Positions 17,727 to 40,581 of a DNA stretch of 64,000 nucleotides are shown in pieces. The notes under the pieces are model-generated. The model did no database searches. It saw only the letters and a program-made list of their open reading frames with translations, and was not told the origin of the DNA. Location of the stretch: NCBI GenBank assembly GCA_964617735.1, contig CAZTXT010000001.1, positions 267,589 to 331,588 on the forward strand, in the 5' to 3' direction. The DNA comes from an uncultured Candidatus Saccharibacteria bacterium (GTDB lineage Bacteria; Patescibacteriota; Minisyncoccia; Phycocordibacterales; DSPV01). A program made the translations under genes and the position numbers. Numbering within the stretch: the first letter of the stretch is position 1; each line of letters begins with the position of its first letter.

Positions 17727-17737
17727 ACGTTTTTCTT

Positions 17738-17808
17738 TGCGGGGTCATCTAATGGTAGGATACATGACTCTGAATCATGTCATCTTGGTTCGAATCCAAG
17801 CCCCGCAG
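17738..17808 (+). tRNA. tRNA-Gln (anticodon CTG), no encoded CCA
   Basis: Acceptor stem TGCGGGG/CCCCGCA, anticodon arm CATGA-CTCTGAA-TCATG, T-arm CTTGG-TTCGAAT-CCAAG. The D-arm is short and atypical (TCTA-ATGG-TAGG). Confidence 0.7.
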
Positions 17809-17842
17809 AAATTAGCCGCAGAGTAATTTCTGCGGGGCTTGG
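17796..17842. repeat. 19-bp perfect inverted repeat built from the tRNA-Gln 3' end
   Basis: CCAAGCCCCGCAGAAATTA - 9-nt loop - TAATTTCTGCGGGGCTTGG. The first arm is the T-stem 3' strand plus the acceptor 3' strand of the tRNA. A second perfect hairpin, GTCGGGAAAGAA-TG-TTCTTTCCCGAC, follows at 17853-17878. Confidence 0.8.
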
Positions 17843-17955
17843 ATAGATAGGGGTCGGGAAAGAATGTTCTTTCCCGACGAGGAAGGCAGGAGCGGAGCGA
17901 CGTTGGAAAACCGTGGGTTTCCAAAAATCCTTGCCCCGCAGTCATTGAGATAGAT

Positions 17956-18684
17956 TTGGATTCCGAGGAGCTTATGAATTGGCATTTAAATAAAGACTCA
18001 AAGGTAGATTGCATATGTGTTCGGGGAGTAGCTATTACTCTTTTTCTAATCTGGTGTTTACTCACAGCACATATTTTTTATCTCAGATTAGTCCCACAAG
18101 TGGATGGTGTAACCATAACTAGACAGGACCCACATCGTCTTGTAGCCCAGATGGGACCTTACTCTGTTGAGGTTACTGGAGGAAATATTCAGCCAGATCA
18201 AATCCAAGTGTCTCAACTGAAATCGCAGGTCGATTCTGCTTTGTTGGAGCTTGATAATGCAAACTCTTTTCCTTTTATTGCAAAATGGTTATTGAAGTAC
18301 GATATAGACGTCTTTCTTAGAAGCTCTCAAATCGAAGATTCACAAAAGCAAATCAATTCATATGTTAGTTGTAATGGTGTTTCAGCCACACGCGATATTG
18401 TATTTTCGAGAAAAAGTATTTCTTTAGAAGACTTCCAGTTGGAACTTAAAAATTCTCTTCCCAATATTCTAAATAGTTGTGCCGTAAATGTTCAGAATGT
18501 TGACAATTCTGCATTACCAGAGAAATACGTGGTCGATGAAACATACGGATTCACCGTAAGTCCTGCCTTAAATAATTATTTTATTCTGTTGTTAATTGTT
18601 TTTCTCGGCTCTTCCGCAATTCTTCCTATCTTGAGAGAAAGTATTCGCTTCTTTAAAAGTGGCTTCTATTATTTTAAAGAATAA
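17956..18684 (+). CDS. Hypothetical membrane protein (AT-rich gene)
   Basis: Long ORF with an N-terminal TM (VAITLFLIWCLLTAHIFYL) and a C-terminal TM. Visibly AT-rich relative to its flanks. No recognisable motif. Confidence 0.45.
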   Translation: MDSEELMNWHLNKDSKVDCICVRGVAITLFLIWCLLTAHIFYLRLVPQVDGVTITRQDPHRLVAQMGPYSVEVTGGNIQPDQIQVSQLKSQVDSALLELDNANSFPFIAKWLLKYDIDVFLRSSQIEDSQKQINSYVSCNGVSATRDIVFSRKSISLEDFQLELKNSLPNILNSCAVNVQNVDNSALPEKYVVDETYGFTVSPALNNYFILLLIVFLGSSAILPILRESIRFFKSGFYYFKE

Positions 18685-18815
18685 CTATTCCGAGGAACAT
18701 CGAAATAGTGAACTAAAAAGCGTCACAAAAGCCTTATGGGGCTTGACGGCATAATTTACGAGACCGAGGAGGTCAGCTAGTTTGAGCTGTGCTCGAGTCG
18801 TATTAAAATTATTAC

Positions 18816-19292
18816 ATGCCACACATCCACGAAAATATCGATTTTACGGTGGAAGTCCTTTTGGTATATAAAGACCGAATTCTATTGAGGTTGCACGACA
18901 AATACAATAAGTGGCTCTCTGTCGGTGGCCACGTTGAGCTCAACGAAGATCCTGTCGAGGCGGCAGTTCGGGAGGTGCGGGAGGAGGTGGGTATATCAGA
19001 GATTCAAATTTGGCAAGGCCACATCAAGTATCCTTTACCGGCCTCTGTCGCAAGAGGATACAAGGAGTTAATCCCACCGGTATTTTTGAACAGACACAAT
19101 ATTTCAGATTCGCACGAACATATAACATTCGTGTATTTTGCTTCGTGCGATACGGATAAAGTTGTTGAGCAGGAATCAGAAAAGAGCGGAGGATGGAAGT
19201 GGTGCACTGCCGAAGAACTAGATAACCTCCCAAGTCTCTCAAAACATATGAAGCACTACGCACTCGCGGCTTTGAAAGCACTGAAAAATTAG
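18816..19292 (+). CDS. NUDIX hydrolase
   Basis: Nudix box GGHVELNEDPVEAAVREVREEVGI (G.5E.7REU.EE.GU). Confidence 0.85.
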   Translation: MPHIHENIDFTVEVLLVYKDRILLRLHDKYNKWLSVGGHVELNEDPVEAAVREVREEVGISEIQIWQGHIKYPLPASVARGYKELIPPVFLNRHNISDSHEHITFVYFASCDTDKVVEQESEKSGGWKWCTAEELDNLPSLSKHMKHYALAALKALKN

Positions 19293-19499
19293 AGCGCTCG
19301 AGTCCCGTCGTTTGAAGATGGAGAAATGCGGCTAAACCGTCAAGACTGGCTTGCCCTGTTACGGTTCTAGCTCAAGCCGTCCAGTAAGTGACTTTTTCAC
19401 CATACGCGTTATAGTGAAAAAGATACTCGTTGGATTTTGATTCGAACCCTGAACCTAGGTTTGCTATAATAAAATCCTAATAATCTAATACTTACTACT

Positions 19500-19760
19500 A
19501 TGTACACGCATGATTGGGGTGGAAATTTCGGGATCGGGTTTCCGCTTTGGCTCCCGCCGTTCATCGCTATCGTTGCGCTCTGGAGCATATTTTGGAAAGG
19601 GCTTGCGCTCTGGCATTCGGCCCGGCGCGGCGAGCCGTGGTGGTTCCTCGCGCTCCTCATCGTCAATACTGTCGGTATTCTCGAGATCGTGTATCTCTTC
19701 GCGTTCGCCAAACTCAAATTCGAGGATTTGTTCCGCAAGCACGAGAAGCACACCGGATAG
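19500..19760 (+). CDS. DUF5652-like small membrane protein
   Basis: WGGNFGIGFPLW...WSIFWKGLALWHSARRGEPWWF resembles the conserved two-helix core of DUF5652 proteins, which are common in CPR genomes. This is from memory of the family only. Confidence 0.5.
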   Translation: MYTHDWGGNFGIGFPLWLPPFIAIVALWSIFWKGLALWHSARRGEPWWFLALLIVNTVGILEIVYLFAFAKLKFEDLFRKHEKHTG

Positions 19761-19836
19761 CAGCTGCATAAGCCCCTCGTTTTTGTCACGTTTTCGAGGC
19801 TGGTTCGTAGTAGAAGGGTGAGGCTATAATAGAGAC

Positions 19837-20388
19837 ATGAACGAGCGCGAGCTTATTGAAGACTGCCGGAAAGGCAACAGACAGTCCTTCGGCGCGATCT
19901 ATGATACCTATGTACACGGTATCTATGACTTTATCTATTACAAGACCCACCATAAGCAGACAGCCGAGGATTTGACACAGGAGACCTTCTTCAAGGCGCT
20001 CAAGAATATCCATCAGTTCGATGCGCTGCGGTCATTTAAATCATGGCTGTATAGGATCGCGCAGAACGCGGTGATCGATCACTACCGGAAGGCTTCGCGA
20101 GAGACGCCACTTGACGATGCATGGGATGCTCCGAGCGAAACCGACATGCCGGCCGATTTCGACACGCGGAAGCAGATCGATGAATTGCGCAGGCAGTTGA
20201 GCTTGTTGCCCTCGCTCTCGCGCGACATCATCCTTCTCCGCGTTTGGCAGGATTTGTCGTACAAAGAAATCTCGGAGATCGTCGGGAAAAGCGAAGACAA
20301 CTGCAAAATGATCTATTCCCGCGCTCTGCGCTCCTTGAAAGGGACTATGCCGATCCTCGTGCTGCTTATGCTAGTGCTTAAATCATAA
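19837..20388 (+). CDS. ECF-type RNA polymerase sigma factor
   Basis: Sigma-70 region 2 (YDFIYYKTHHKQTAEDLTQETFFKALKNIHQF...SWLYRIAQNAVIDHYRK) and region 4 (ILLRVWQDLSYKEISEIVGKSEDNCKMIYSRALRSLK). 183 aa. Confidence 0.85.
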   Translation: MNERELIEDCRKGNRQSFGAIYDTYVHGIYDFIYYKTHHKQTAEDLTQETFFKALKNIHQFDALRSFKSWLYRIAQNAVIDHYRKASRETPLDDAWDAPSETDMPADFDTRKQIDELRRQLSLLPSLSRDIILLRVWQDLSYKEISEIVGKSEDNCKMIYSRALRSLKGTMPILVLLMLVLKS

Positions 20389-20392
20389 TGTC

Positions 20393-22003
20393 ATGAAAAA
20401 CGTCGACCAGATCATACAAGAATTGTTCACGCTCGAGCCGAGTCTGCGTAGCCGCGAGCGCGAGCTCCGCACACTCGTCTCCCAACTGCTTTCCTCGAAA
20501 CCGAATACTAAATTCGATGCCACTTTCGCCGCGCGCTTGCGCGCAGAGCTTCTGGGGTCCTCGGTATTGGCTGTGCCAATACGCTCGTCCTGGTTGGGCT
20601 TCCCGCGCCTGCTTGTTGCGGCTGGCTCGCTTGCAGCTATTACGCTCATCATTGTTGCCGCTAATTCTCTTACCCCCGCGCCAAGGCAAGGACTTTCATT
20701 CGAGCAGCAATTCACGGCGACCAAAAACCATGGGTTCGGCTCGCTCTCGGTGAATACTTCGGGAAAAGGGGGAGCGACGGATCAGGTGCAGAGCGTGAGT
20801 TCCGCAAATCCGAGCGTTGATTCAAAATCTAGCGCTCCTGCTTCCACACTTGCCGCTCCGAGCCGTATGGCAGTGTCGGTTGAAGGAGGAGCCGGGTACG
20901 GTGGGGCTTCAGGTGCAACGATAGTGCCCACACCAGCGATTTATCCGGGTTTTGCTGACCAACTTATCTATGTATACAAAGGTACAGCCTTTACTATTCC
21001 GAAAGAGGGAGTGGTGTATAAGCGCGTGAAGGGAGAGGATGCTCGCGATGAGTTCATCACAGAGCTCAAGGCATTCAACCTCGGGCTTATCGACCTTCTC
21101 TCGTTCGACAACCTTAAGCTCTTGAATTTCGAGGTGGCAGAAAATAAGACCAGTGGCTACCAGATCGACGTCAATACGGTCGAGGGATCTGTTTCGATCA
21201 ATCCGGACTACCAAGAGTGGCCCGCGATGAAAGGGGAGGTACCGGTGGGCGCGCGTGCTACGCTCTCGGAAAAGGAAATTATCGCGATCGCCGAGCAATT
21301 CATACAGGATCATGGCATCAATCGCTCGATCTACGGCGATCCTATCGTCCAGAAGATGCCCGATTACCGCATGATGGGCACTCGCGAAGTGCTTCCGCCG
21401 CAAGCTTCAGAAGGTTTTTCTCCTGCAGGCTCGCCCCAAGATTTAGCCACGCCTTCCTCCGACAGTAAAATGATGCCGATCTATATGCCGGAGGTCGTTA
21501 CCGTAACCTTCCCGCTTATCATCAAGGGACTGCCCGTATATGAATCAGGAGGATACCCCTACGGCCTGCAGGTCTCTGTCTCGGTGCGCGAGCGCAGAGT
21601 GTACTCGGTAAACAACCTCACGTCCCAGCATTACGACGCTTCATCCTATCCCCTTATTTCCGATCCGCAGAAAGTTCTCTCGTACCTTACGAGTGGCGGC
21701 ATATACGGCTCTTCTTACTACCCCGAGGGCATGCAGGTCAGAAAGATATACCTGGAGGCAGGCACCCCATCGAATGTGCTGATGCATTATTATTCGTATG
21801 CCAACGGCGAGAATCAGGAACTGTATGTTCCGGCGCTTCTTTTCCCGATAACCAAGGCGCCAGCCGGGCAAGAATATTATTACCCATCGTCGATACTGAT
21901 CCCGTTGGCCGAGGATCTCTTTAATCAGCCCGAGCCTCGCCCTATGCCGATGATGGAAAAAGGAGTGATACTCCCGTCACAGAGCTCTGGATCGACGATG
22001 TGA
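20393..22003 (+). CDS. Putative anti-sigma factor: single-pass membrane protein with a large extracytoplasmic domain
   Basis: Starts 5 nt after the sigma factor stop. ~70-aa cytoplasmic segment, one TM helix (LLVAAGSLAAITLIIVAA), then a ~440-aa extracytoplasmic domain with no recognisable family motif. Confidence 0.5.
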   Translation: MKNVDQIIQELFTLEPSLRSRERELRTLVSQLLSSKPNTKFDATFAARLRAELLGSSVLAVPIRSSWLGFPRLLVAAGSLAAITLIIVAANSLTPAPRQGLSFEQQFTATKNHGFGSLSVNTSGKGGATDQVQSVSSANPSVDSKSSAPASTLAAPSRMAVSVEGGAGYGGASGATIVPTPAIYPGFADQLIYVYKGTAFTIPKEGVVYKRVKGEDARDEFITELKAFNLGLIDLLSFDNLKLLNFEVAENKTSGYQIDVNTVEGSVSINPDYQEWPAMKGEVPVGARATLSEKEIIAIAEQFIQDHGINRSIYGDPIVQKMPDYRMMGTREVLPPQASEGFSPAGSPQDLATPSSDSKMMPIYMPEVVTVTFPLIIKGLPVYESGGYPYGLQVSVSVRERRVYSVNNLTSQHYDASSYPLISDPQKVLSYLTSGGIYGSSYYPEGMQVRKIYLEAGTPSNVLMHYYSYANGENQELYVPALLFPITKAPAGQEYYYPSSILIPLAEDLFNQPEPRPMPMMEKGVILPSQSSGSTM

Positions 22004-22016: not shown

Positions 22017-23312
22017 TTAGTAGTTGAACAGCTCGAAATGTATCTGTTTGCGCGCTACTGTAAGGCGCTCTAAGATCGCGATGATGGAGCGGACCATGGG
22101 AGGGGGCCCGCAGACGTAACTGTCGCGTTCGAGGAAATCAGGCACCAGCCGTTGTATTTTTTCTTCGTCGATGTATCCGCGCTCGTATTTGCCCGCGTCT
22201 TTTTCAGAGAGAATGTGATGGATCGGTATGTTAAGCGCTTCGAGTTCAGCTTTGAAGACGATATCTTCCGGAGAACGGTTGCCGAAGAGCAGCACTACGT
22301 CTTTTTTCTGATGCGAGAGCGATTCCGCGAGGGCTCGTAGCGGAGTGATGCCGATGCCGCCGGCGATCAGCAAAAATTTTTCGGTAACGGCTACTTTTTG
22401 CGTGAATTTTCCGAACGGGCCTTCCAAAAGCACCTTGGTGCCTGGCGGTACAGAGCGTACGCGCGCCGTGAAGTCGCCGAGATTTTTCGGTGAGATGCGC
22501 AGGCCTTTTCCGTCGAATGCTTTCGATATCGAGAATGGGTGCGGTTGCCTGAATCCTTTTGTCATAAAAAGAACATGCAGATACTGCCCGGAGTCGAAGG
22601 TGAATCTCTCGAGGTGCCGACCGCCGATGTAGATCGAGCAGACGTTATGTGTTTCCTCGACGACTTTCTCGACAGAGAACCGGTGTCGGTAGAAGAGCAC
22701 GAATGGGTGGATGAATCGATAGGCCACTAGGGCACCGAAAACCGAGAAGTTCAGCGTATACCAGTAATAGTACGCCGCTCCATGGCTGACATCGGCTGTG
22801 TTCACCTGGTGCCAGAAGATCAGTGCGATGGCGCCGTACATCAGGAGGTGACTGACATGCCATGTTTCATATTTCATTCTCGGGCGCGAGAAGGAGAGTG
22901 AAAGCACGACCAGAGTCACTAGCAGTAAAAGGCCCAGAAATGCTTTCAGGACGTCTTGCCAGTCGGTCAAGAACGTCAGAAATTGTGAGATGATCGGAGC
23001 GTTATTCGCGTAGGCGTATCCGATGGTCAGCGAAAGCGGGTGCAGGATGATAAGACTGGCGATATATTTGCCTACCGTTCGATGCAGCCGGTTGAGTTTG
23101 TCGAAGCCGAATTCCTGCTCGATCAGGCGGATGCGACTGATGAGGATGAGCTGCAGTAAAATGGTGAGCTCTGCTAAAAGTCCCCAGAGCCTGCCGAATG
23201 CGATGAGTGTTCCATCGATGCCTCTGATGAGCGCATGCGAGCCTTCCCACCAGAAGGTGATCGTTACCATGATGTTGGCAAGTAAGATGGCGTAGAGCAG
23301 TTTCTTACGCAT
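22017..23312 (-). CDS. Ferric-reductase-domain transmembrane oxidoreductase (NOX/FRE-like, with FAD/NAD(P)-binding domain)
   Basis: Multi-TM N-terminal half with conserved His pairs. FAD-binding motif HPFSIS. NAD-binding GGIGITP. Start set at the internal Met (MRKKLLYAILL) at 23312, which overlaps the upstream stop as ATGCGTAA. The listed ORF start at 23474 would overlap the upstream gene by 170 nt. Confidence 0.7.
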   Translation of the reverse strand: MRKKLLYAILLANIMVTITFWWEGSHALIRGIDGTLIAFGRLWGLLAELTILLQLILISRIRLIEQEFGFDKLNRLHRTVGKYIASLIILHPLSLTIGYAYANNAPIISQFLTFLTDWQDVLKAFLGLLLLVTLVVLSLSFSRPRMKYETWHVSHLLMYGAIALIFWHQVNTADVSHGAAYYYWYTLNFSVFGALVAYRFIHPFVLFYRHRFSVEKVVEETHNVCSIYIGGRHLERFTFDSGQYLHVLFMTKGFRQPHPFSISKAFDGKGLRISPKNLGDFTARVRSVPPGTKVLLEGPFGKFTQKVAVTEKFLLIAGGIGITPLRALAESLSHQKKDVVLLFGNRSPEDIVFKAELEALNIPIHHILSEKDAGKYERGYIDEEKIQRLVPDFLERDSYVCGPPPMVRSIIAILERLTVARKQIHFELFNY

Positions 23313-23835
23313 GACGTTGGCTCTCGGCATCGAGCTGGTAGAGCGGTTGCACAAAAAATAAAAACACGTTTGCGAAGGAAAACACGATCGCAAGGCTCCA
23401 GAGCGACGCGTATTGATAGCCTGCCATGATACCGCAGAGCGTAAGCGCTCCCGCGAGGGCCCCTGACAGGTCAACGAGGATCTTTCGTTTGATGAGTTTC
23501 GGGTGGCTAGTCTCGTAGAGGAGAAACGAGTACTTTACGCACGCGACAATAAAGAGCAGCAGGAACGCGAAAGCGAAACCCTTCGGACTCCCGAATTCCC
23601 ATGCGGTGAGAAGATAGATGAAAAAAAGCCCGGCGTCGCAGGTTTTCTGTATGGACGATGGTGGCGTTATCGCCGAAAAGATACGCACCGAGAAGAAGGT
23701 ATTCACGAGGAGTACTGCATATACGATGAGCATCGGCAGGCTCTGTCCTAGATCAGTGATCCGTATGAGGGCGAAGAGCGCTCCGGCGATCAGGAATATA
23801 ATGCTGACGGATGAAGCTTTAGTTTGTGGCCGCAT
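23305..23835 (-). CDS. Hypothetical polytopic membrane protein
   Basis: 176 aa with 5-6 hydrophobic helices. Tightly packed between the GT2 gene and the NOX-like gene. Confidence 0.5.
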   Translation of the reverse strand: MRPQTKASSVSIIFLIAGALFALIRITDLGQSLPMLIVYAVLLVNTFFSVRIFSAITPPSSIQKTCDAGLFFIYLLTAWEFGSPKGFAFAFLLLFIVACVKYSFLLYETSHPKLIKRKILVDLSGALAGALTLCGIMAGYQYASLWSLAIVFSFANVFLFFVQPLYQLDAESQRHA

Positions 23836-23839
23836 GGTT

Positions 23840-24574
23840 TTATTGTCTGATATCCGAAGAGGCCTTCGTGAGTGTTCGGTGGAAGAGTGCTTGAGAGATG
23901 AAGTTGAGCGCGTAGACTATGTTGGTTTTGAACATTCCTTCCGCCGAGAAGCGCCGAAGTGATGAGTATACGAAGAAATCCATACGAAAGATGACTTTTC
24001 CGAACTGGTGCAATCGCCGAGCAGTATCGGTGTCGTCCCCATAGAAGCGGATGTTTTTATTGAATCCACCCATTGCAAGAAGGGCAGAGCGGCGCGCGAC
24101 GAAATTTCCCCCGAGCACTGCATATCCGGTCATACGGTAGGCGAGCGGAGCGGTGAGCCACCAGAGCGCGCCGAGGAGAAATCTCTGGAAAGGTTTCCCA
24201 TCATAGTAGCGATACGGGCCGCTTAAAGATACTACGTCGGGGCGTTTCGTAAACATATGCTCGACCATCGGTACCCAGCCTTCGGTTAAATGGGTATCAG
24301 CGTCGAGGAACGCGACCAACTCTCCTGACGAATGTTCCAACCCCAATTGCCGCGCGGCATTGGGTCCAAGCTTTTCTCCCGTTACGACTTTTACGCCGGG
24401 ATATTTGAGTGCGATCTCGCCCGTTCGGTCGGTACTCCCGCTGTCGGAGACGATGATCTCGGAAAATCGCCCGCGAGAATGCCGCAGAGCCTGCTCAAGG
24501 CATGCCCCGATGCTCGCCGCTTCATTGTACGCAGGTATGATGAGGCTAATGCTTGGTTTTTCATTCATAGCCAT
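23840..24574 (-). CDS. Family 2 glycosyltransferase (polyprenyl-phosphate sugar transferase-like, DPM1/GtrB size class)
   Basis: SLIIPAYNEA...VSDSGSTDRT...FLDADT (GT2 DxD-type signature). 244 aa. Confidence 0.8.
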   Translation of the reverse strand: MAMNEKPSISLIIPAYNEAASIGACLEQALRHSRGRFSEIIVSDSGSTDRTGEIALKYPGVKVVTGEKLGPNAARQLGLEHSSGELVAFLDADTHLTEGWVPMVEHMFTKRPDVVSLSGPYRYYDGKPFQRFLLGALWWLTAPLAYRMTGYAVLGGNFVARRSALLAMGGFNKNIRFYGDDTDTARRLHQFGKVIFRMDFFVYSSLRRFSAEGMFKTNIVYALNFISQALFHRTLTKASSDIRQ

Positions 24575-25300
24575 TTATCGGATCGGTTCCCATTCTTTGC
24601 TTACGGAGCGTTTGAACACCATCATGCTGAACCAATTGGTGAGCCAGAGGGTGAGAAGTTTTGGCCATCCGACCTTATGTATACGCCGGCCAGTCTGATA
24701 CGCGGTCAAACCAAGCTCCATCCGCGTCCCGCCGATCTTTGAAAGGCGGTAGAAGAGCTCATTGTCTTCCGCAGCTGAAAGGTCTTCGCGGTAGCCACGG
24801 AGCTTTTCGAACGCGCTTCGGCGTATCATCTGGAATTCCCCCGGAGATGCGCCAGCGTGGAGGACATTGTTCATGAGCGCGTACGTCCGATTGATGATGA
24901 AGAACAGCACGGTATCTGCCAGAGTCGCGTTTTCTTTGCTGACGGCAAGCGCGACGGTCATTCCGAGGAGATTCTTGTTCGTTTGGAACCGCTCTATGGC
25001 TTTATGGAAAAAGTCATCGGGGTGGGGAATGGTCACATCGGCGTCGAGGAATACAAAGAATTCGCCTGAAGCCGCTTTCGCACCCATGTTCCGAGCTTGC
25101 GCTATGGTTTGGCGTTTAGTGTCGCGATACACGAGCACTTTGTCGGTGTAGCGTCGCGCTATTTCTTGCGTTTTGTCTTTGCTTCCGCCGTCAGAGACGA
25201 TGATCTCGTACACGGTAGACTTAAAGTTATGGACGATCTCGTCTAGCGTTTTCTCAAGCACTGACTCTTCGTTGAGGGTTGGGATGATGATGGATATCAT
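24575..25300 (-). CDS. Family 2 glycosyltransferase (second copy)
   Basis: SIIIPTLNEE...VSDGGSKDKT...FLDADVT. Abuts the downstream GT2 gene with no gap. Confidence 0.8.
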   Translation of the reverse strand: MISIIIPTLNEESVLEKTLDEIVHNFKSTVYEIIVSDGGSKDKTQEIARRYTDKVLVYRDTKRQTIAQARNMGAKAASGEFFVFLDADVTIPHPDDFFHKAIERFQTNKNLLGMTVALAVSKENATLADTVLFFIINRTYALMNNVLHAGASPGEFQMIRRSAFEKLRGYREDLSAAEDNELFYRLSKIGGTRMELGLTAYQTGRRIHKVGWPKLLTLWLTNWFSMMVFKRSVSKEWEPIR

Positions 25301-25935
25301 GATGCGTTTGCGCCCACAAAGCGTCTCCCGAAATATTTTCCTATCCCAAAGATAGCGATAAGTCCGAGTACAAAGAGCGCTACGACGCTCATCTTCCCGA
25401 TGATGCCATTGACCTGCAGGTAGAGCGTTCCGAAGACATAGCCTATGGACATAAGGAATGCAGTCCAGAAGAACTGTCCGACCGCGTTGAGCAGGATGTA
25501 TTGTTTAAAAGGGATCCTTACGAGTCCTGCGGTGAAGAGTGTTACGAGCGCGAATCCGAATCCCATCGTCATCTTGGAGATGATGAGTATTTTTTTTGTA
25601 TGTCGGTGAAAGAAATCCTCGATCATGTTGACCTGATCACGCGAGATGCTGAAATATCTCCCGAACCTATCCACAAATCGGCTTCCCCCATAGTAGCCCA
25701 AGCTATACCAGAACACGTCTCCGATGAGATCTCCGGCCATGAGCGCAAGGTACGGATATAAAAGTGGCAGGACCCCCGCTTTGATTAGCGCGCCGCAGAC
25801 GAGGGCAAGTATCGGACCCTCGATAAAGGAGACTACGACGAGCACCGCGTAGACCCAGAATGTTTGATAGGCGACCAGTTGCTGCACCGTTTCCTGAAGA
25901 CTTTCGGGCCTTAATGCCATAACTAAATCGGCCAT
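25297..25935 (-). CDS. DedA/VTT-family membrane protein
   Basis: VVVSFIEGPILALVCGALIKAG...LIGDVFWYSLGYYGG matches the DedA core. Start set at MADLV (25935), because the listed start at 26070 would run into the upstream gene. Shares an ATGA 4-nt overlap with the GT2 gene. Confidence 0.75.
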   Translation of the reverse strand: MADLVMALRPESLQETVQQLVAYQTFWVYAVLVVVSFIEGPILALVCGALIKAGVLPLLYPYLALMAGDLIGDVFWYSLGYYGGSRFVDRFGRYFSISRDQVNMIEDFFHRHTKKILIISKMTMGFGFALVTLFTAGLVRIPFKQYILLNAVGQFFWTAFLMSIGYVFGTLYLQVNGIIGKMSVVALFVLGLIAIFGIGKYFGRRFVGANAS

Positions 25936-25972
25936 GTGACCAGTATAGCACCTCTCGTGGTAAGTATGAGAG

Positions 25973-26404
25973 CTACCGAATAGGCATCGTGCTGCTCGCC
26001 GGGCGTATCTGCAGCGATTGTGCCGTGATAGAGCCGTCCGAATTCGCGGTTCCGAAGGCCTGCACTTCAAGACCAGTTTTCAAGTCCGATGCGCTACCCG
26101 AGACGCTTTTCATGACCGGAGTACTCGCGGAATAGAAAACAATCTTCGAGCTTCCGTCACGCATAGAGAGCGTGATGCTTTTATCGTCCTTCGAGAGTAT
26201 TTCTCCGGCGGCGAATCCCATGCCTGCGCCTGCCCCGCGTCCGCCAGCGCCTCCTACGCCGGAAAACTGTCCCCCAAACTGCCCAGACCGCGCGCCATTG
26301 CCATTACGCGTTGGCATGCTCGATTTTGCATAGAGCGTGCCGCCATAGAACGAAGCGCCACCGACAACGATGATCGCGATCACGATACCAAGTGTTTTAT
26401 TCAT
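25973..26404 (-). CDS. Small secreted Gly-rich protein, DUF5666-like
   Basis: N-terminal TM/signal, a Gly-rich segment, then [31 protein letters not shown]...[30 protein letters not shown], which fits my recollection of the DUF5666 beta-rich core. Confidence 0.45.
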
Positions 26405-26434
26405 GTTTTTTATTACTATTTATAATTAATAATC

Positions 26435-27658
26435 TTATTCATAGCGCAAAGCCTCTATCGGATTTAGTCGTGACGCTCGTCGCGCCGGATAGTAACCGAA
26501 GGCAACGCCGATGAAGGCCGATACTCCGAAGGCAAGCAGTATCGAGAAGGCCGAGACCTTTGTTTCAAGCAATCCAAAATACGTTATTGCCCGCGACACA
26601 CCCCATCCGAGAATGATCCCGATGAGACCGCCGACTAAGGTCAGTACGAGCGCTTCGACGAGGAATTGGGCGTTGATGTCGCGGCGCTTCGCGCCGATCG
26701 CTTTGCGCAAGCCGATCTCTCTGGTGCGCTCGGTTACGGTTGTGAGCATCATATTCATGATGCCGATACCGCCGACGAGCAGGGAAATGCCTGCGACTGC
26801 GGCGAGCAGTATCGTGAATGTTTGGGTGACGCTCGAAGCGGTCGAGATGATGTCGTTTTGATTGAGGATGCTGAAGTCCGCCTGTGTTGGGTCGGTGATA
26901 CGATGCCGTGCAAGCAACAGGTCGGTGATGTCGCTCTGGACTTGGGTCATTGCATCGGCGCTGCTCGCTTCGATGCTTATATTCGTCAGGTATTTCCCAC
27001 CCGAGAGATATCGCTCGGCGCTCCCTAAGGGAACGAAGATCATGTCGTCTTGGTTGAAGAACCCGGTTCCTCCTTTGGCGGCGGTTACGCCGATGATTTT
27101 GAATTCGAGTTTATTGATGCGCAGAGTTTGTCCGACCGCTTCCGCATCTTGGCCAAAGAGGTCATCGCGGGCTGCGGGGCCAATGACCGCGACTTTCGCT
27201 CCGGATGCGGCTTGCGATTCCGAAATGAACGAGCCTTCGTCGACGGTGAGATTATGGACTTGCGTATAGTTTTCCGTCGCACCGACGACCGACGTATTGG
27301 TATTCGTGCCCTTAGCGGTTATCTGGTAGCGGCCGCTTATCTCGGGAGATATCGCTGCGATGGATTGGACTTGCCCCGCAATAGCCGTCGCGTCGTCTTC
27401 AGTGAGCGTTCGCGCCGCTCCGCGCCCCGTGCTTATGCCGAATCCCTGTCCTCGCTGCGCGCCCGGCGTCACTTGGATGAGGTTCGATCCGAGCGACTGG
27501 ATGCGTGCTTGGATCGAACCCTGTGCTCCTTGTCCTATCGCGATCATCGCAATGACGGATGAAATGCCGATGACGATACCCAAGATGGTAAGCCCCGAGC
27601 GAACCTTATTTGCGGAGAGCGCCGCGTAGGTTTCTTCTAATAGATCGCTGCTGTTCAT
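26435..27658 (-). CDS. ABC transporter permease, MacB/FtsX-type
   Basis: N-terminal TM, a large periplasmic domain and three C-terminal TM helices with the FtsX-like layout. 4-nt overlap with the ATPase gene. Confidence 0.85.
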   Translation of the reverse strand: MNSSDLLEETYAALSANKVRSGLTILGIVIGISSVIAMIAIGQGAQGSIQARIQSLGSNLIQVTPGAQRGQGFGISTGRGAARTLTEDDATAIAGQVQSIAAISPEISGRYQITAKGTNTNTSVVGATENYTQVHNLTVDEGSFISESQAASGAKVAVIGPAARDDLFGQDAEAVGQTLRINKLEFKIIGVTAAKGGTGFFNQDDMIFVPLGSAERYLSGGKYLTNISIEASSADAMTQVQSDITDLLLARHRITDPTQADFSILNQNDIISTASSVTQTFTILLAAVAGISLLVGGIGIMNMMLTTVTERTREIGLRKAIGAKRRDINAQFLVEALVLTLVGGLIGIILGWGVSRAITYFGLLETKVSAFSILLAFGVSAFIGVAFGYYPARRASRLNPIEALRYE

Positions 27659-28356
27659 GATAGTTTGCGTTCTTGTCCATTCACTGTGTCGCTTTCGATG
27701 CGACCGTCTCTGATGTGAATGATGCGCTTGGCATGTCTAGCGACGTCAGGTTCGTGCGTGATGAGGATGATGGTGCGCCCTTGTTGCTGGTTGAGCGTCT
27801 TGAATGTCGAGAGTACGATCTCTCCGGTTTTGGTGTCGAGATTTCCCGTCGGTTCGTCGGCGAGGATGAGCGCGGGATCGTTGACGAGGGCTCGCGCGAT
27901 GGCCACCCGCTGTATTTGGCCGCCGGAGAGCTCATTGGAGCGATGGAGGAAATGTCCGGTATCGAAACCCGCTGCGGAAAGCGCAGCGGACGCTCTCCGT
28001 TCGCGCTCCACTCCCATGACGCCTGCATAGATGAGCGGAAGCGTCGTGTTGCGGAGCACCGTCGCGCGGGGCAGGAGATTGAATGATTGAAAGACGAAGC
28101 CTATTTTGTCCTTCCGTATATCGGCGAGCTCGTCGTCAGAGAGTTTTGATACGTCTTTCTCGTCGAGAAAGTAGGTGCCTGATGTTGGCGTGTCGAGCGC
28201 CCCCAAAATATGCATCAGCGTTGATTTCCCGGATCCCGACGGTCCCATGATGGCGACGAACTCGCCGTCAGAGATCGTGAAGCTGACGCCACGGAGCGCT
28301 TGAAACTCGATCGCGCCGGTCGTATAGGTTTTCGTAACGTTTTTTACTTCGATCAT
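27655..28356 (-). CDS. ABC transporter ATP-binding protein (MacB/LolD-type)
   Basis: Walker [10 protein letters not shown], signature LSGGQIQR, Walker [13 protein letters not shown]. Confidence 0.9.
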
Positions 28357-28380
28357 TCGCTGTTCTGCGTTTACCCTGCA

Positions 28381-30189
28381 CTATCTCCCGATGAAGACAC
28401 GGTTTCCCGCGTTACCGCCTCCACCGGAGCCTCCGGTTCGGGTTCCGCCTCCAAAGAGGCTCGGTGCCGATTGCGCCGTAGCGGTCGTCTGACTTGCGGT
28501 GATGGTTCGGGTCACTATCTGGTCGCCTTCAGAGAGTCCCGAGATGATCTCCGTCTCGCTATCATTGGAGATCCCGACTTCGACCGGTTTCATTTGTGGC
28601 GCTATGGTCGAGGTAACACCCTGATTCCCCCCGGTCGTCGGAAGGGCAGGCGAGAAGACTTGCGCGACGCTCGTTCCGTTGACGGTTCGTATGGCGCTCG
28701 CAGGCACCATGAGGACGTCTTGATGCACGTCCGTGATGATCGAAGCGTTCGCGGTCATTCCCGGTTTTATCGGTGCGTTTTGGGTATCGAATGCTATTTT
28801 GACGTTGTATGATACGACCCCTTGGGAGACCGTGCCTACCGGATCGATCTCGGCGACTGAACCGGTCAACGAGAGTCCATCGATCGCGTCGAAGGTCAGC
28901 GTCGCTTTGTCGCCCACTTTTATCTTGGCCGCGTCCACTTCGTTGAGCGAGAGCGTCGCGATCTTTTGTGTGGTGATGAGCGTCGCGATCGTCGTTCCGG
29001 AACTCGCGCTATCGTGCACTTTCACATTGAACGCTGCGATGGTACCTGAAAACGGCGCGCGCACGGTATAGTCGGCAAGCGTCTGATTGAGGCTCACGAG
29101 GTTATCTTCTTGGTTTTGGATGCTATTCCTCGATATCTGAAGGCTTATCGGGTTACTGCCCGATGCATTCCCGACTTGAAGTAAGGTGATGTTCTGCTCG
29201 TCTGTTTTTATCCCCTGTTTATCCGTTTCGATCGCTTTCTTTTGCGACAAGAGGTCATTGAGCACGGTGTTTGTGGTCGAGAGCCAGGTGCGTGCGTTCG
29301 TTTGCATCGACGTCACTCCGGCGTTCAGGTGAAAATTGTGCGCTGAAGCGAGATCGGTAGTTTCGGAAAGAAGGTTGAGCTCGCTCTGCAGGCTCTGCGC
29401 TATGGCAGTTGCGGTGTCGATGGTCTCCCCCAAAAGTTTCTCGAGCTCGTCGCCGGTCGCGTATCGCGTTGTTTGTTTATATTCGAGTATACTCGCGTCA
29501 TATTTGCTCCGGGCGGTGGCGTAGTCGTTCGTTGCGCTGGTCGCGAAGGTTCGCATCGTCTCTCGATCGTCGTTCATGAAAAGATTCACGAGCGTGTCTA
29601 CGTTCCACTGGCTGTGTCCGTCGCTTAGATCATAGCCGAAGAGCGCATCGTGAATGCCCGTGATCACCGGGGGAAGATCGAGATATGCGTTCGATATCGT
29701 ATTGAAGGTGTCGACATAGGTCGTGGCCAGGTCTTCCTTCGCGCTTGCCAGCGCATCCTGCGCTTTTTGATAGTCTATCGGAGCTTGTGCGCTGTCCTTT
29801 TGGTATTGGAGATTGGCTTCAGCGAGCGATTGCTCGGCGTTCGTCACTGCTTTCTTTCCATCAGTGTTGTCGATGCTTGCAAGAGCCTCTCCTGTGTAAA
29901 CAGTATCGCCTGCTTTAACGCCGACCCAAACGATGTCGCCCGAGACCTTCGACTTTACATCAAGTTGCGTCGATGCCGATACTTGCCCGGATGCGGATAC
30001 AGAGGCGATAAGCGTGCTTTTCGTTACGGTACCGAGTATATAGCGTGTCTCACCGGAAGTCGAAGTCGCTCGTGCATACACCATGTACGCTCCCAAGAGC
30101 GCCGCAGCGATGATGATGACCGAGATGAGCTTGTGCGCGGTCGCGTAAGCTTTTATTTTTTGGAAAACAGGCAAGTTGTTGATGCGCAT
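28381..30189 (-). CDS. Periplasmic adaptor (HlyD/membrane-fusion) protein with a Gly-rich C-tail
   Basis: TM anchor, long coiled-coil region, beta-barrel/lipoyl-like segments. Ends in GGGTRTGGSGGGGNAGN. Start set at the internal MRINNLP (30189), after the upstream gene ends at 30227. Confidence 0.75.
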   Translation of the reverse strand: MRINNLPVFQKIKAYATAHKLISVIIIAAALLGAYMVYARATSTSGETRYILGTVTKSTLIASVSASGQVSASTQLDVKSKVSGDIVWVGVKAGDTVYTGEALASIDNTDGKKAVTNAEQSLAEANLQYQKDSAQAPIDYQKAQDALASAKEDLATTYVDTFNTISNAYLDLPPVITGIHDALFGYDLSDGHSQWNVDTLVNLFMNDDRETMRTFATSATNDYATARSKYDASILEYKQTTRYATGDELEKLLGETIDTATAIAQSLQSELNLLSETTDLASAHNFHLNAGVTSMQTNARTWLSTTNTVLNDLLSQKKAIETDKQGIKTDEQNITLLQVGNASGSNPISLQISRNSIQNQEDNLVSLNQTLADYTVRAPFSGTIAAFNVKVHDSASSGTTIATLITTQKIATLSLNEVDAAKIKVGDKATLTFDAIDGLSLTGSVAEIDPVGTVSQGVVSYNVKIAFDTQNAPIKPGMTANASIITDVHQDVLMVPASAIRTVNGTSVAQVFSPALPTTGGNQGVTSTIAPQMKPVEVGISNDSETEIISGLSEGDQIVTRTITASQTTATAQSAPSLFGGGTRTGGSGGGGNAGNRVFIGR

Positions 30190-30226
30190 GAATATTTTTA
30201 ATCGCAGAGTCCCCCTGGTAGTTCTC

Positions 30227-30712
30227 TTACCAATGCAGCACGGTTCCGGTCGCACTCTCTCCTACCGGCGGTTCGGGAAGAAGGCGGATCAGCTCTGCGT
30301 TTATCTGACCCTTTTCATTCGGTGAGCCGATGACTACGGCGAATTCTCCGACCGAAAGGTCAGTAGGAGCGATCGCGTCACGGAACCTTCGAATCTCGGT
30401 AGTACTGGCGATCGCGACCGCTTTCTCTACGTTCTCGCGGTCGGATATTAAGATTATGGGAAGGTCTACCTTGATTATCTTGCCGATCGTACCGTGGGCG
30501 TTAGGGAACTCCCGGTCGTGCGGGACCCGTATCATAAAATTGCCCGGATGCCCGCCGAAGGTTCGATAATAATTGTCGCCCCAGCGGTAGGAGAATTCAG
30601 CACGGTGGAAACCCACTGCCATGCCCGCTTGAAAGATAAAAAGCGCGACGATGAGGATGCCCAATCCCCACAGTATCGTTTTGAATACTTTTGACTCCAG
30701 GAAATTTCTCAT
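30227..30712 (-). CDS. Membrane-anchored periplasmic protein, DUF5666-like
   Basis: One TM helix, then GTIGKIIKVDLPIILISDRENVEKAVAIASTTEI...DLSVGEFAVVIGSPNEKGQINAELIRLLPE, which fits the same beta-rich pattern as 25973..26404. Confidence 0.4.
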   Translation of the reverse strand: MRNFLESKVFKTILWGLGILIVALFIFQAGMAVGFHRAEFSYRWGDNYYRTFGGHPGNFMIRVPHDREFPNAHGTIGKIIKVDLPIILISDRENVEKAVAIASTTEIRRFRDAIAPTDLSVGEFAVVIGSPNEKGQINAELIRLLPEPPVGESATGTVLHW

Positions 30713-31128
30713 GCTCGATGGAGCCTATGCCCGCTGATGCCCTGCGCGGCGCGCAGGGTCGACACCAGCGCTTTGACTGATCCTAAAAATACGAAAAGCG
30801 CCGCAAGAGAAGCGGTGATGCTCATCAGCGGCACTGAATCGGTGACTGCCAGCGCGAAATCTTTCCAGTAGAGAAGCATCGTTTGTCCGTCCGAGAGGAG
30901 TAGAGAGAGGTAGTTGTTCAAGCCGGACTGCGAGAGACCTGAAACGGCATACTGGAGAGCGGGAATGAATGCACCCAAGGATATGACCGAAAGAGCGCCA
31001 AAGAGATAGGATCGCCGGCGCGCCTGTGTGCTCGCTTCGATGCTGATGCGTCCTATAATGGCTTGGTAGAGGCCTTTGGGCGGCTCTTTGTGCCGCACAT
31101 GGGCAAATAGTTTCTCATATGGATCCAT
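30709..31128 (-). CDS. Putative anti-sigma-like membrane protein (start uncertain)
   Basis: MDPYEKLFAHVRHKEPPKGLYQAIIGRI, then a TM helix (LFGALSVISLGAFIPAL). Follows the ECF sigma gene. Alternative starts at 31182 or 31287 would place a perfect 13-bp palindrome inside the coding sequence. Confidence 0.4.
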   Translation of the reverse strand: MDPYEKLFAHVRHKEPPKGLYQAIIGRISIEASTQARRRSYLFGALSVISLGAFIPALQYAVSGLSQSGLNNYLSLLLSDGQTMLLYWKDFALAVTDSVPLMSITASLAALFVFLGSVKALVSTLRAAQGISGHRLHRA

Positions 31129-31140
31129 AGGAAAGTATAC

Positions 31141-31175
31141 GAAAGAAGGATGCCCATCTGGTGCATCCTTCTTTC
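31141..31175 (-). promoter_or_regulatory. Perfect 13-bp inverted repeat (hairpin) between the ECF sigma gene and the downstream gene
   Basis: GAAAGAAGGATGC - 9 nt - GCATCCTTCTTTC. There is no T-run afterwards, so this is a candidate attenuator, translational hairpin or protein-binding site rather than a canonical terminator. Confidence 0.5.
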
Positions 31176-31252
31176 TGAACATCCGAATAAAGGTCGTCAA
31201 ATTCGGGGAGTCCTTATAAACTTTCGCGCGAAACAGAGGCGAGTGCCTCTGA

Positions 31253-31837
31253 TTACTGTAACGAGCCTTCGTTGAGTTTTGGTGCATCCAGATTCTTGCG
31301 CAATGCTATCAGAGCCCGGCGGTGCTGGCTTTTAACGGTATTGAGCGGTTTCCTAAGTATGGTGCCTATCTCATCGAAGGTGAGTTCCTCGAAATAATAG
31401 AGATTGAGCACTTCTCGGTAGCGCGGATGGAGCGTAAGGAGCATCTTCTCTAAGAATGCTTTATCATATGCGCGCGCAAGCACCTCGTCGGGAAGCGCTT
31501 GCGTATCTGCGAGCTTCTCTGTCAGGGTGTTCCCGTCCTCATCGTCATCGAAGTCGGAGAAATGAAGGTGTTTTCGCTTCCGGAGCCAATCGATAGCCGT
31601 CCGATGTGCGATCGTAAAAAGCCATGTTTTGAAACTCTGCTGCGGGCGATATTTTTTGATATGCCGCCACACCTTCACAAACGTCTCTTGAGTTATGTCT
31701 TCGGCATCGGCCGAGGAGCCCGTCATGACATACGTATAATTATAGATAGATGCAAGATGCCGGTTGATAAGGACGCCGAGGGCGTGCGGATTCCCCTCTA
31801 GGTGCTCCTCGATGAATTGTTCGTCGGTTCGTTCCAT
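31253..31837 (-). CDS. ECF-type RNA polymerase sigma factor (second copy)
   Basis: Region 2 DAEDITQETFVKVWRHIKKY...TWLFTIAHRTAIDWLRKRK and region 4 LNLYYFEELTFDEIGTILRKPLNTVKSQHRRAL. Confidence 0.85.
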   Translation of the reverse strand: MERTDEQFIEEHLEGNPHALGVLINRHLASIYNYTYVMTGSSADAEDITQETFVKVWRHIKKYRPQQSFKTWLFTIAHRTAIDWLRKRKHLHFSDFDDDEDGNTLTEKLADTQALPDEVLARAYDKAFLEKMLLTLHPRYREVLNLYYFEELTFDEIGTILRKPLNTVKSQHRRALIALRKNLDAPKLNEGSLQ

Positions 31838-31953
31838 AGCTGCGGGGGGATTTTAGGCGGCATCAGTGTAGCATGTCTCGACCCTCTATTCATCTAAGCG
31901 CTCTACCGCAAGGGATTGCGAACATTGGCGAAAGCAAAAAGGAGGTATAGTAT

Positions 31954-32562
31954 ATGGCTATGAAAAAGAATCTCATTATCGTGGCAGTCGTGGTCGTCGT
32001 CATTATCGCGGCACTGCTCGTATTCTGGAGATCAAAACCACAAGAGCCAGAGGTTGTGACTCCGCAGCCGGAGGTCCTTAATACCTACGCTTCCTCGACG
32101 CTCGGCGTGTCGCTGAGTTATCCACAAGGTTTTAGCGTCAATGAATCGTACACCTACGACCAGTTCGGTCCGAAAAAACCCATTCACGGAGTTAAGTTCA
32201 CTATTCCAGCTGCCATGGCTACGGGCACGAATCTCGGGACTGATACGGGAATTTCCGTAGAAACTCTGCCGCGTGCGAAAAATTGCACGGGCGACATCTA
32301 CCTCTACGATAATGTCACTGCGCATCAGTATACCGAAGGCGGCATTACCTACTCGATTGCTTCTTCTACCGGCGCGGGTGCGGGGAATAGGTACGAAGAG
32401 ACCGTCTATGCATTCTCGACCAGCTCGCCGTGCACAGCGATCCGTTATTTCATACACTACGGCGTCATCGACAACTACCCTGACACGGTCAAAGAATTTG
32501 ACCGAAACACGCTGGTTCGGACGTTTGATACGATCCGCCGCTCGGTCTCGTTTATGCGCTGA
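31954..32562 (+). CDS. Hypothetical membrane-anchored/secreted protein
   Basis: N-terminal TM (LIIVAVVVVVIIAALLVFW), then a 170-aa hydrophilic domain. No recognisable motif. Confidence 0.5.
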   Translation: MAMKKNLIIVAVVVVVIIAALLVFWRSKPQEPEVVTPQPEVLNTYASSTLGVSLSYPQGFSVNESYTYDQFGPKKPIHGVKFTIPAAMATGTNLGTDTGISVETLPRAKNCTGDIYLYDNVTAHQYTEGGITYSIASSTGAGAGNRYEETVYAFSTSSPCTAIRYFIHYGVIDNYPDTVKEFDRNTLVRTFDTIRRSVSFMR

Positions 32563-40563: not shown

Positions 40564-40581
40564 CCTCTGGTCTTTTAACAC

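Follow-up and report, generated by a model that had tools for sequence, protein, structure and literature searches.

Twelve consecutive open reading frames (ORFs) on the minus strand, from 31837 down to 22017, were analysed in a 64,000-nucleotide (nt) stretch, hereafter the window, of contig CAZTXT010000001.1 (assembly GCA_964617735.1, an uncultured Candidatus Saccharibacteria bacterium). The array is probably a compact envelope island, likely to be co-transcribed, of three independently conserved modules in a Paceibacterota-type genome of the candidate phyla radiation (CPR). The modules are a MacB-type pump cassette headed by an extracytoplasmic function (ECF) sigma factor gene (31837–25973), a block of DedA, two family 2 glycosyltransferases (GT2) and a small membrane protein (25935–23305), and a ferric-reductase-domain flavocytochrome resembling NADPH oxidases (NOX), here called FRD (23312–22017). 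Protein families, motifs, gene spacing, conservation of the modules and gene fusions were observed; from them we infer co-transcription, control by the sigma factor, and the substrates and acceptors. Every component belongs to a known superfamily, and the array itself is no new kind of system. What is new is the arrangement: a seven-gene MacB cassette that includes its sigma gene and two DUF5666-like proteins, two pairs of a GT2 with a membrane partner, and a repeated association with a NOX-like gene. In the literature searched, neither this cassette nor the array was described, nor was any function of DUF5666 or DUF5667.

Architecture of the array

The candidate promoter and the genes of the array are listed below, with protein lengths in amino acids (aa).

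31850..31879, minus strand: sigma-70-like candidate promoter GAGACA-18-TAAAAT (9 of 12 matches in a consensus scan; pattern match only)
31253..31837, minus strand: ECF sigma factor, 194 aa (Pfam, NCBIfam)
31287, 31182 or 31128 to 30709, minus strand: anti-sigma-like membrane protein, 139 aa from start 31128
30227..30712, minus strand: p161, anchored extracytoplasmic protein, distantly DUF5666-like (orthologues, weak similarity)
28381..30189, minus strand: HlyD/MacA-type membrane-fusion adaptor, 602 aa (Pfam, TIGR01730)
27655..28356, minus strand: ATP-binding cassette (ABC) ATPase subunit, 233 aa (Pfam ABC_tran)
26435..27658, minus strand: MacB-type permease, 407 aa (MacB_PCD and FtsX)
25973..26404, minus strand: DUF5666-like anchored protein, 143 aa (sub-cut-off Pfam match, orthologues)
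25297..25935, minus strand: DedA-family membrane protein, 212 aa (Pfam VTT_dom)
24575..25300, minus strand: GT2a, GT-A glycosyltransferase, 241 aa (Pfam Glycos_transf_2)
23840..24574, minus strand: GT2b, GT-A glycosyltransferase paralogue, 244 aa (Pfam Glycos_transf_2)
23305..23835, minus strand: mem176, six-helix membrane protein (AlphaFold2 model, family search)
22017..23312 (alternative start 23330), minus strand: FRD, predicted NOX-family flavocytochrome, 431 aa (Pfam, motifs)

The co-directional array was present at 31837–22017 as the initial annotation had described it, but it comprised twelve ORFs and not ten; the gene list of that annotation itself names twelve. The gene order and most of the family labels given there held. 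Pfam and NCBIfam confirmed all family labels but those of the anti-sigma-like protein, p161 and mem176, which had no family match. The spacing given there, gaps of 0–37 nt or overlaps of 4–8 nt, was correct except at the junction of the sigma and anti-sigma-like genes. All other junctions were overlaps of 4–8 nt (ATPase/permease 4 nt, DedA/GT2a 4 nt, mem176/FRD 8 nt) or gaps of 0, 4, 24, 30, 37 and 37 nt. The sigma/anti-sigma junction was ambiguous: the longest ORF, starting at 31287, gives a 35-nt overlap, and the start at 31128 gives a 124-nt gap. The possible start codons were compiled along with the sequence preceding each. The start at 31128 was favoured, as the alignment with five orthologues begins only near residue 54 of the longest ORF. 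Eight gene models (all except the anti-sigma-like gene, HlyD, ATPase and permease) were looked up in a public protein collection, and all eight were found as exact sequences.

The candidate promoter lies 13 nt ahead of the start codon of the sigma gene, and at the other end of the array the FRD stop codon lies 13 nt from that of a convergent plus-strand gene. Terminator-like hairpins that might split the array were found in none of its intergenic gaps; all minus-strand matches were inside genes. A neighbouring plus-strand run (7271–22003) was equally long and mixed unrelated genes (RF2, FtsX, CTP synthase, NUDIX and a second sigma factor), so co-directionality alone means little in this genome. 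Gaps in that run were mostly 44–600 nt, and it is the tight spacing that sets the array apart.

Named sources of homologues of FRD and GT2a were Candidatus Paceibacterota, Parcubacteria, Taylorbacteria, Minisyncoccia and Patescibacteria, which assigns the window to a CPR bacterium of this type. Nine FRD homologues (42–55% identity) were examined with ~10 kb of flanking sequence; the contigs that carry them measure 76 kb to 1.2 Mb. Their neighbourhoods were as follows.

L001: sigma, 137 aa, 155 aa, HlyD, ABC, MacB, 149 aa, cytochrome b5, FRD
L086: the order of L001, but with a cupredoxin before FRD
L003: cytochrome b5, FRD, sigma, 97 aa, 187 aa, HlyD, ABC, MacB
L087: FRD, sigma, 125 aa, 162 aa, HlyD, MacB, 142 aa, cupredoxin, second sigma, DUF5667, DUF5666, DedA, GT2
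L085 and L089: cupredoxin, FRD; without the cassette
P0014 locus: cupredoxin, FRD, then an unrelated FtsX/ABC pair; without the cassette
L088: FRD, with a cytochrome b5 ~0.9 kb away; without the cassette
L002: sigma, 461 aa, 235 aa, short-chain dehydrogenase/reductase (SDR), FRD, with DUF2231 and Nramp downstream

Synteny in relatives held for the cassette block and for the DedA/GT2 pairs and not for the array as a whole, the modules being conserved separately.

A conserved seven-gene pump cassette

The seven genes from the sigma factor to the 143-aa DUF5666-like protein formed a conserved cassette, kept as a block in four relatives (L001, L003, L086 and L087). In phmmer comparisons with the ORFs of these relatives, sigma orthologues scored 132–214 bits, HlyD orthologues 167–428 bits and MacB permease orthologues 508–585 bits. 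Orthologues of p161 were at the equivalent position in all four (61–158 bits), and those of the anti-sigma-like protein directly followed sigma in four relatives (32–64 bits). A separate ATPase was present in L001, L003 and L086 (344–375 bits), with none seen in the L087 cassette, and the 143-aa protein had orthologues after MacB in L001, L086 and L087 (50–97 bits). In L003 the cassette runs from sigma through the permease, and the protein after the permease is unrelated to the DUF5666-like protein.

The sigma factor matched Pfam Sigma70_r2 (3.5e-23) and Sigma70_r4/r4_2 (~2e-12), had no region 3, and scored 125 bits against the sigma70-ECF model TIGR02937 (cut-off 43). SigW-type models were among its best named NCBIfam matches, under their equivalog cut-offs. 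The membrane protein encoded next has two predicted hydrophobic segments and no anti-sigma domain recognisable by Pfam or NCBIfam; five orthologues share an N-terminal PPxxLxxxIL motif. The position of this protein directly after sigma suggests a putative anti-sigma role. p161 has a single N-terminal transmembrane segment, no Pfam match, and weak similarity (E ~1e-4) to the DUF5666-like proteins encoded 3′ of MacB.

The adaptor matched Pfam HlyD_3 (9.7e-15), HlyD_D23 and TIGR01730 RND_mfp (130 bits, cut-off 95), and its nearest solved sequences were the MacA proteins 4dk0 and 5nik_D. It carries one N-terminal transmembrane segment and a Gly-rich tail, GGGTRTGGSGGGGNAGN. The ATPase matched ABC_tran (2.5e-33). 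The permease matched MacB_PCD (1.7e-48) and FtsX (3e-24), and aligned with Escherichia coli MacB 5nik_J at E 3.5e-64 and with the Streptococcus pneumoniae Spr0695-type permease 5xu1_M at 8.5e-40; hydrophobic segments at residues 23–41 and in the C-terminal region 270–379 correspond to about four helices, as in MacB-type permeases. The 143-aa protein matched DUF5666 under the Pfam cut-off (3e-4) and has one N-terminal transmembrane segment and a Gly-rich linker.

The pump had been described as tripartite. A TolC-like outer-membrane factor was found neither in the array nor among 39 further ORFs scanned, all within the 64-kb window, and the ATPase and permease are separate genes. CPR bacteria are generally held to have no outer membrane. 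The permease is clearly of MacB type and the nearest solved relatives of the adaptor are MacA proteins, as in E. coli MacAB-TolC; unlike that system, the cassette has no TolC-like factor, its ATPase and permease are not one polypeptide, and its host is presumably monoderm. Likeness was also seen to the Gram-positive MacAB-like pumps Spr0693-0694-0695 of S. pneumoniae (PDB 5xu1) and YknXYZ of Bacillus subtilis, which share a separate ATPase, a MacB-type permease, a HlyD/MacA-like adaptor and the lack of an outer membrane. The resemblance extends to the YknXYZ sigma-W regulon, given the SigW models among the best matches of this sigma factor and the matches of the relatives' adaptors to YknX-named Pfam domains. 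The cassette differs from both systems in that sigma and a putative anti-sigma share a unit with the pump, in its two fixed DUF5666-like anchored proteins, and in its ~600-aa adaptor with a Gly-rich tail; it differs from YknXYZ also in having no YknW-like protein and in its scores under the SigW equivalog cut-offs. The cassette is thus defined as a conserved seven-gene Paceibacterota unit around a MacB-type pump in single-membrane organisms.

By analogy with YknXYZ/sigma-W and Spr0693-0695, the membrane protein would hold sigma inactive until envelope damage frees it, and the released sigma would raise transcription of its own unit. The pump would then use the adaptor tube to expel a substrate (an antimicrobial peptide, a lipid or a protein) from the membrane's outer face. 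Expulsion would be driven by ATP through mechanotransmission, with a four-transmembrane-segment permease, its periplasmic domain and the separate ATPase.

A NOX-like flavocytochrome as a recurrent neighbour of the cassette

FRD matched Pfam Ferric_reduct, FAD_binding_8 and NAD_binding_1. Bacterial NOX have been defined by three sequence filters: a flavin adenine dinucleotide (FAD) motif, an NAD(P)H motif and two His pairs (Hajjar et al. 2017, PMC5676040). In FRD the FAD motif was HPFSI at residue 258 (searched as H[PSA]F[TS][LIMV]), with HPFS invariant in 25 relatives. The NAD(P)H motif was GIGITP at residue 319, of which G319, I320, G321, T323 and P324 were invariant in the same comparison. 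The haem-ligand pairs were H77-X13-H91 and H155-X12-H168, inside the Ferric_reduct match, and all four His were likewise invariant. The dehydrogenase domain matched that of SpNOX (8qq5, 1.2e-11) and cytochrome b5 reductases. FRD thus passed all three filters, and its sequence places it in the bacterial NOX/long-form FRD family. With SpNOX it shares the six-helix ferric-reductase domain, the two His pairs, HPFSI, GIGITP and the dehydrogenase match.

As judged from sequence, membership in the NOX family would not imply oxygen as the acceptor of FRD. A His at the position of NOX2 His-119 is associated with NOX forming reactive oxygen species (ROS) as against metalloreductases (Zhang et al. 2013, PMC3591440). 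The residue of FRD four after the outer ligand of the third transmembrane segment, H91, was Leu (H91-P-L-S-L95) and not His, unlike the ROS-forming NOX of that study. According to two recent structural papers on SpNOX, what bacterial NOX homologues do physiologically and which acceptor they use have yet to be established, and a protein acceptor is plausible (PMC11564096, PMC11031084). Even for SpNOX the acceptor is a matter of dispute (PMC11564096).

The gene had been regarded as an unusual addition to such a cluster. As listed above, FRD adjoined the orthologous cassette in four of the nine close relatives, L001, L003, L086 and L087, in which the DedA/GT2 block was elsewhere or absent. The cassette preceded FRD in L001 and L086 and followed it in L003 and L087, and the window shows a third order. 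Judged by this arrangement of modules in relatives, it is FRD that recurs beside the pump, and the DedA/GT2 block that varies as an insert.

A second kind of neighbour recurred beside FRD. A cytochrome b5 or cupredoxin gene was within a few tens of nt of FRD in L001, L003, L005, L006, L086, L089, L053, L057, L068, L075, L077 and L080, the last six being distant lineages, and within 1 kb in L004, L085 and L088. In these proteins a hydrophobic anchor at the N terminus is combined with a low-complexity linker, so they should face outward; the cupredoxins carry the Cys-His-Met copper motif. They are direct candidate acceptors for bacterial NOX homologues. A scan of genome contigs seeded on IAGGIGITP gave mostly distant phyla, of little use for Paceibacterota synteny, and yielded FRD–cytochrome b5 pairs elsewhere; a scan of metagenome contigs with the single FRD protein gave one distant, short locus.

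NAD-binding "MsrQ-like" proteins have been proposed to supply extracytosolic flavoproteins with electrons or to serve iron uptake (Meheust et al. 2021, PMC8238504). The relatives of FRD resemble these systems in having an extracytoplasmic redox protein as neighbour. They differ from them in that this carrier is an anchored cytochrome b5 or cupredoxin and not an ApbE-flavinylated flavin mononucleotide protein; the window copy has neither.

Two groups of genes flanking the array were linked to FRD in relatives.

19837..22003, plus strand: second ECF sigma factor (19837–20388; Pfam sigma r2, r4) and its 536-aa partner (20393–22003), convergent on FRD
31954..32562, plus strand: p202, anchored extracytoplasmic protein, divergent from the sigma gene; no Pfam match

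In L002, the sigma factor and the 461-aa protein encoded upstream of FRD were orthologues of this second sigma and its partner (183 and 156 bits), so FRD is linked to two different ECF systems. A homologue of p202 (46 bits, E 2.7e-12) was found in L004 at 9363–9989, directly upstream of FRD with a 1-nt overlap.

In module 3, electrons would pass from cytoplasmic NAD(P)H to FAD, through two haems, and to an acceptor outside the membrane, which in the relatives would most likely be the neighbouring anchored cytochrome b5 or cupredoxin. A more specific proposal is tentative and, on balance, doubtful: in Paceibacterota, FRD would be co-regulated as an output of ECF-sigma envelope-stress units, tied both to the cassette and to a second pair of sigma and anti-sigma, and would pass electrons from cytoplasmic NAD(P)H to an anchored protein outside the membrane (cytochrome b5, cupredoxin or p202 type) and not make superoxide. 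These electrons would serve metal reduction or the repair of oxidised envelope components. If true, this proposal would give bacterial NOX homologues specific protein acceptors and so answer an acknowledged open question.

A cupredoxin-like ORF of the window (41299–41808) was considered as an FRD partner and judged unlikely: its distance from FRD is 18 kb, its score against the partner cupredoxins is only 28 bits, and the Cys-His-Met motif is missing.

Several further observations were made on FRD neighbourhoods. Pairs of FRD and an anchored redox protein, their frames often overlapping or nearly touching, occurred in Paceibacterota, in Saccharibacteria-labelled bins, in one Pacearchaeota archaeon and in a few Proteobacteria-labelled bins. 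Nramp-type metal transporters were 1–3 kb from FRD in L002 (11929–13239) and L087 (6628–7845), which would be consistent with reductive metal uptake, and a DUF2231 membrane protein was directly downstream of FRD in L002. MsrA was near FRD in L086 and the P0014 locus, suggesting repair chemistry. In L057, from a Buchananbacteria bin, FRD, cytochrome b5 and DedA were on one strand at 9788–12129, again with DedA near a NOX-like gene.

Two glycosyltransferase–membrane protein pairs

The DedA-family protein matched Pfam VTT_dom PF09335 (8.5e-13, 49 bits, cut-off 34). Its best NCBIfam match was UptA NF052604, at 52 bits against an equivalog cut-off of 250. DedA proteins flip undecaprenyl phosphate (PMC12893004, PMC11474028) and also other lipids (PMC10193950).

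GT2a and GT2b matched Pfam Glycos_transf_2 (1.5e-29 and 8.9e-28), had no transmembrane segment, and were 26% identical over their full length; C-terminal amphipathic helices were seen in GT2a. The GT2a family gave 1626 matches of uniform length (~240 aa) in Patescibacteria. The two enzymes had been expected to prove polyprenol-phosphate sugar transferases when compared with hidden Markov models (HMMs). The best-matching model and all polyprenol-phosphate transferase models stayed under their cut-offs, as shown below (bits for GT2a/GT2b).

TIGR04283 (best NCBIfam match): 103.7/88.6, cut-off 182
PpgS: 23/37, cut-off 370
ArnC: 20/24, cut-off 529
Dolichyl-P hexose transferase: 18/27, cut-off 375

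AglJ was also far below its cut-off, and the PpgS, ArnC and dolichyl-P hexose transferase models reached only E 1e-3 to 1e-9 on the GT2s. Sequence matches in the PDB covered the N-terminal nucleotide-binding third only and were non-diagnostic, as with DPMS 5mlz over the N-terminal 110 residues. The AlphaFold2 (AF2) model of GT2a had a mean predicted local distance difference test score (pLDDT) of 96.1. Its top fold matches were PcManGT 6yv7 (E 2.6e-13, TMq 0.72, all 241 columns), chondroitin polymerase, WrtF and BcsA; SpsA and TarS were also in the top 50, and DPMS, GtrB and ArnC were not among them.

mem176 had no Pfam match even at E 10, three close homologues, and 279 family clusters in an exhaustive HMMER search. 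The initial annotation had listed it as a polytopic membrane protein beside the oxidoreductase. It is indeed a six-helix membrane protein (AF2 model, pLDDT 95.4, six-helix bundle), and relatives place it with GT2b. In L090 a GT2b orthologue (331 bits) is followed by mem184, a mem176 homologue, and then a sugar nucleotidyltransferase; in L091 a GT2b orthologue is followed by the homologue mem175 and PAP2_C. Two fusion proteins of 411–436 aa, P0135 and P0148, combine an N-terminal GT2 domain with a C-terminal mem176-type part, and GT2b was 56% identical over its whole length to the GT2 domain of P0148. Because of these fusions and this synteny, mem176 is the detached membrane part of GT2b and not a partner of FRD.

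Two other identities of mem176 were considered. Its lone fold neighbour was a bacterial TMEM175 homologue (5vre_A, E 0.055, TMq 0.66, 13% identity); with that E value and identity and no family match, this was taken as a topology-level resemblance, and a TMEM175-type channel was not adopted. A GtrA-like flippase was rejected likewise: mem176 has no Pfam match, and its model has six helices against the four of the GtrA family. One member of the mem176 family, P0158 (388 aa), is fused to a NUDIX hydrolase domain, and a NUDIX gene is present in the window at 18816–19292, 3 kb from the array; these may hint at nucleotide-sugar or lipid-pyrophosphate chemistry.

The DedA and small GT2 genes were syntenic with each other in L001, L087 and L092, as had been anticipated. 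In L087 a DedA orthologue (148 bits) directly precedes a GT2a orthologue. L092 encodes a GT2b-like protein, DedA (179 bits), GT2a and BacA/UppP, and L001 encodes GT2, DedA, GT2b and PAP2_C on the strand opposite to the cassette. These results indicated that DedA–GT2a and GT2b–mem176 are two conserved pairs, and that DedA/GT2 synteny is conserved while the position of the module relative to the cassette is not. The mem176 family as a detached GT2 membrane half and the DedA–GT2 pair are testable units of CPR envelope glycosylation. BacA or PAP2_C in the relatives' module ties it, circumstantially, to a lipid phosphate carrier.

Small GT2s beside small polytopic proteins and DedA, with BacA or PAP2-like proteins in relatives, recall three-component lipid-carrier glycosylation systems (GtrA/GtrB/Gtr and CsbB/GtcA/YfhO) and the recycling of the carrier by UptA/DedA with BacA. 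Unlike GtrA/GtrB systems, the GT2s here have no GtrB transmembrane hairpin, mem176 is not of the GtrA family, and no GT-C transferase is nearby; unlike UptA, the DedA protein is far under the equivalog cut-off. PcManGT, a minimal membrane GT2 of the cellulose-synthase-like kind, is the best fold neighbour of GT2a, and the fused GT2b–mem176 proteins share its catalytic-then-membrane layout. It differs in that the catalytic and membrane parts are separate genes here, in a sequence identity of only ~21%, and in the membrane part, here a six-helix bundle with a TMEM175-type channel as its only fold neighbour.

In module 2, the two peripheral GT-A enzymes would bind to DedA and mem176 and add sugar to an acceptor embedded in the membrane. 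This acceptor would most likely be a lipid carrier or a glycolipid; flipping or recycling of the carrier may fall to DedA. Gene context suggests a membrane lipid as the acceptor, and it is this context, too, that points to the use of polyprenol phosphate.

Evidence against the island and alternative explanations

Several results weigh against reading the array as one co-transcribed envelope island. Co-transcription is argued from spacing and not from transcripts, and AT-rich −10-like strings were found in the gaps before the HlyD, DUF5666-like and DedA genes, so internal promoters are possible. No ECF-type promoter motif was found, and the anti-sigma role is read from gene position. An autoregulated AAC...CGT-type promoter had been proposed upstream of 31837; AAC...CGT, GAAC...CGT and TGAAAC...CGT had no match in the 116 nt at 31838–31953 or in any internal gap, and the upstream regions of four to five orthologous sigma genes had no common motif evident by eye. 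Other ECF groups use other promoter motifs, so this absence does not exclude autoregulation. The relatives examined number 9–13 and are phylogenetically non-independent, and in distant phyla a MacB set was within 10 kb of FRD in only 3 of ~80 loci (L014, L028 and L032). No cytochrome b5 or type-1 cupredoxin gene is beside FRD in the window, and neither HMM nor fold identified a lipid acceptor for the GT2s.

The initial annotation had coupled stress signalling, glycosylation and export into one pathway. In its fullest form, a sigma-controlled operon would make a polyprenol-phosphate-linked sugar, DedA would recycle the carrier, the pump would export the glycoconjugate, and the NOX-like protein would be an accessory. 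Twelve co-directional genes with very small gaps and several 4–8-nt overlaps are what this would predict; in L001 and L087, too, no more than 10 kb separates DedA/GT2 genes from the cassette, and BacA or PAP2_C in the relatives' GT2/DedA module points to polyprenyl-phosphate chemistry. However, the relatives showed a mosaic of three modules: the cassette occurred in L003 and L086 with no DedA or GT2 within 10 kb, the DedA/GT2/BacA module of L092 had no cassette nearby, and that of L001 was on the opposite strand. Moreover, HMMs and the fold search did not place the GT2s among polyprenol-phosphate transferases, and no GT-C-type extracytoplasmic transferase was found in the 64-kb window. We consider a single pathway unlikely.

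The opposite explanation is that three functionally unrelated modules were packed together by chance in a small, gene-dense CPR genome, their co-transcription being incidental. The equally long run of unrelated housekeeping genes next door (7271–22003) shows that such packing occurs, module order varies among relatives, and FRD was found without the cassette in the close relatives L002, L085, L088 and L089. Recurrence is hard to account for in this way: adjacency of FRD and cassette in four of nine close relatives, in differing orders, would be very unlikely by chance for two loci in genomes of ~1000 genes. In addition, the gaps of the array are far smaller than those of the neighbouring run, and further FRD-linked genes flank the array: the second sigma and its 536-aa partner, whose counterparts are upstream of FRD in L002, and p202, whose homologue precedes FRD in L004. 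Chance packing therefore seems rather improbable, and the island of three modules is preferred.

It is very improbable that the MacB cassette is a LolCDE- or type I-like machine assembling or secreting its own DUF5666-like, Gly-rich anchored proteins, with sigma tuning their production. In its favour, two DUF5666-like proteins are invariant cassette members, the adaptor and the 143-aa protein both have Gly-rich segments, and extraction of lipoproteins and export of peptides and toxins are also known from MacB-family machines. Against it, the N-terminal anchors of the DUF5666-like proteins are of an ordinary kind that would suit export by Sec.

Other features of the window

Genes for redox and repair functions outside the cytoplasm are clustered at 37768–41808, where a thioredoxin-like protein (Redoxin and Thioredoxin_10), a DsbD_TM/CcdA-like membrane protein, a 253-aa ORF, MsrA and the cupredoxin-like protein are encoded.

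A 190-aa ORF on the minus strand (44481–45053) contains an FtsK gamma (winged-helix) domain and overlaps the ATP synthase beta gene by 4 nt. It lies between the ATP synthase gamma (45244–46173) and beta (43117–44484) genes, an unusual insert in an atp operon.

The G+C content of the segment 58001–60000 was 0.354, against ~0.50 in the rest of the window, and this segment may be foreign DNA or AT-rich surface-protein DNA.

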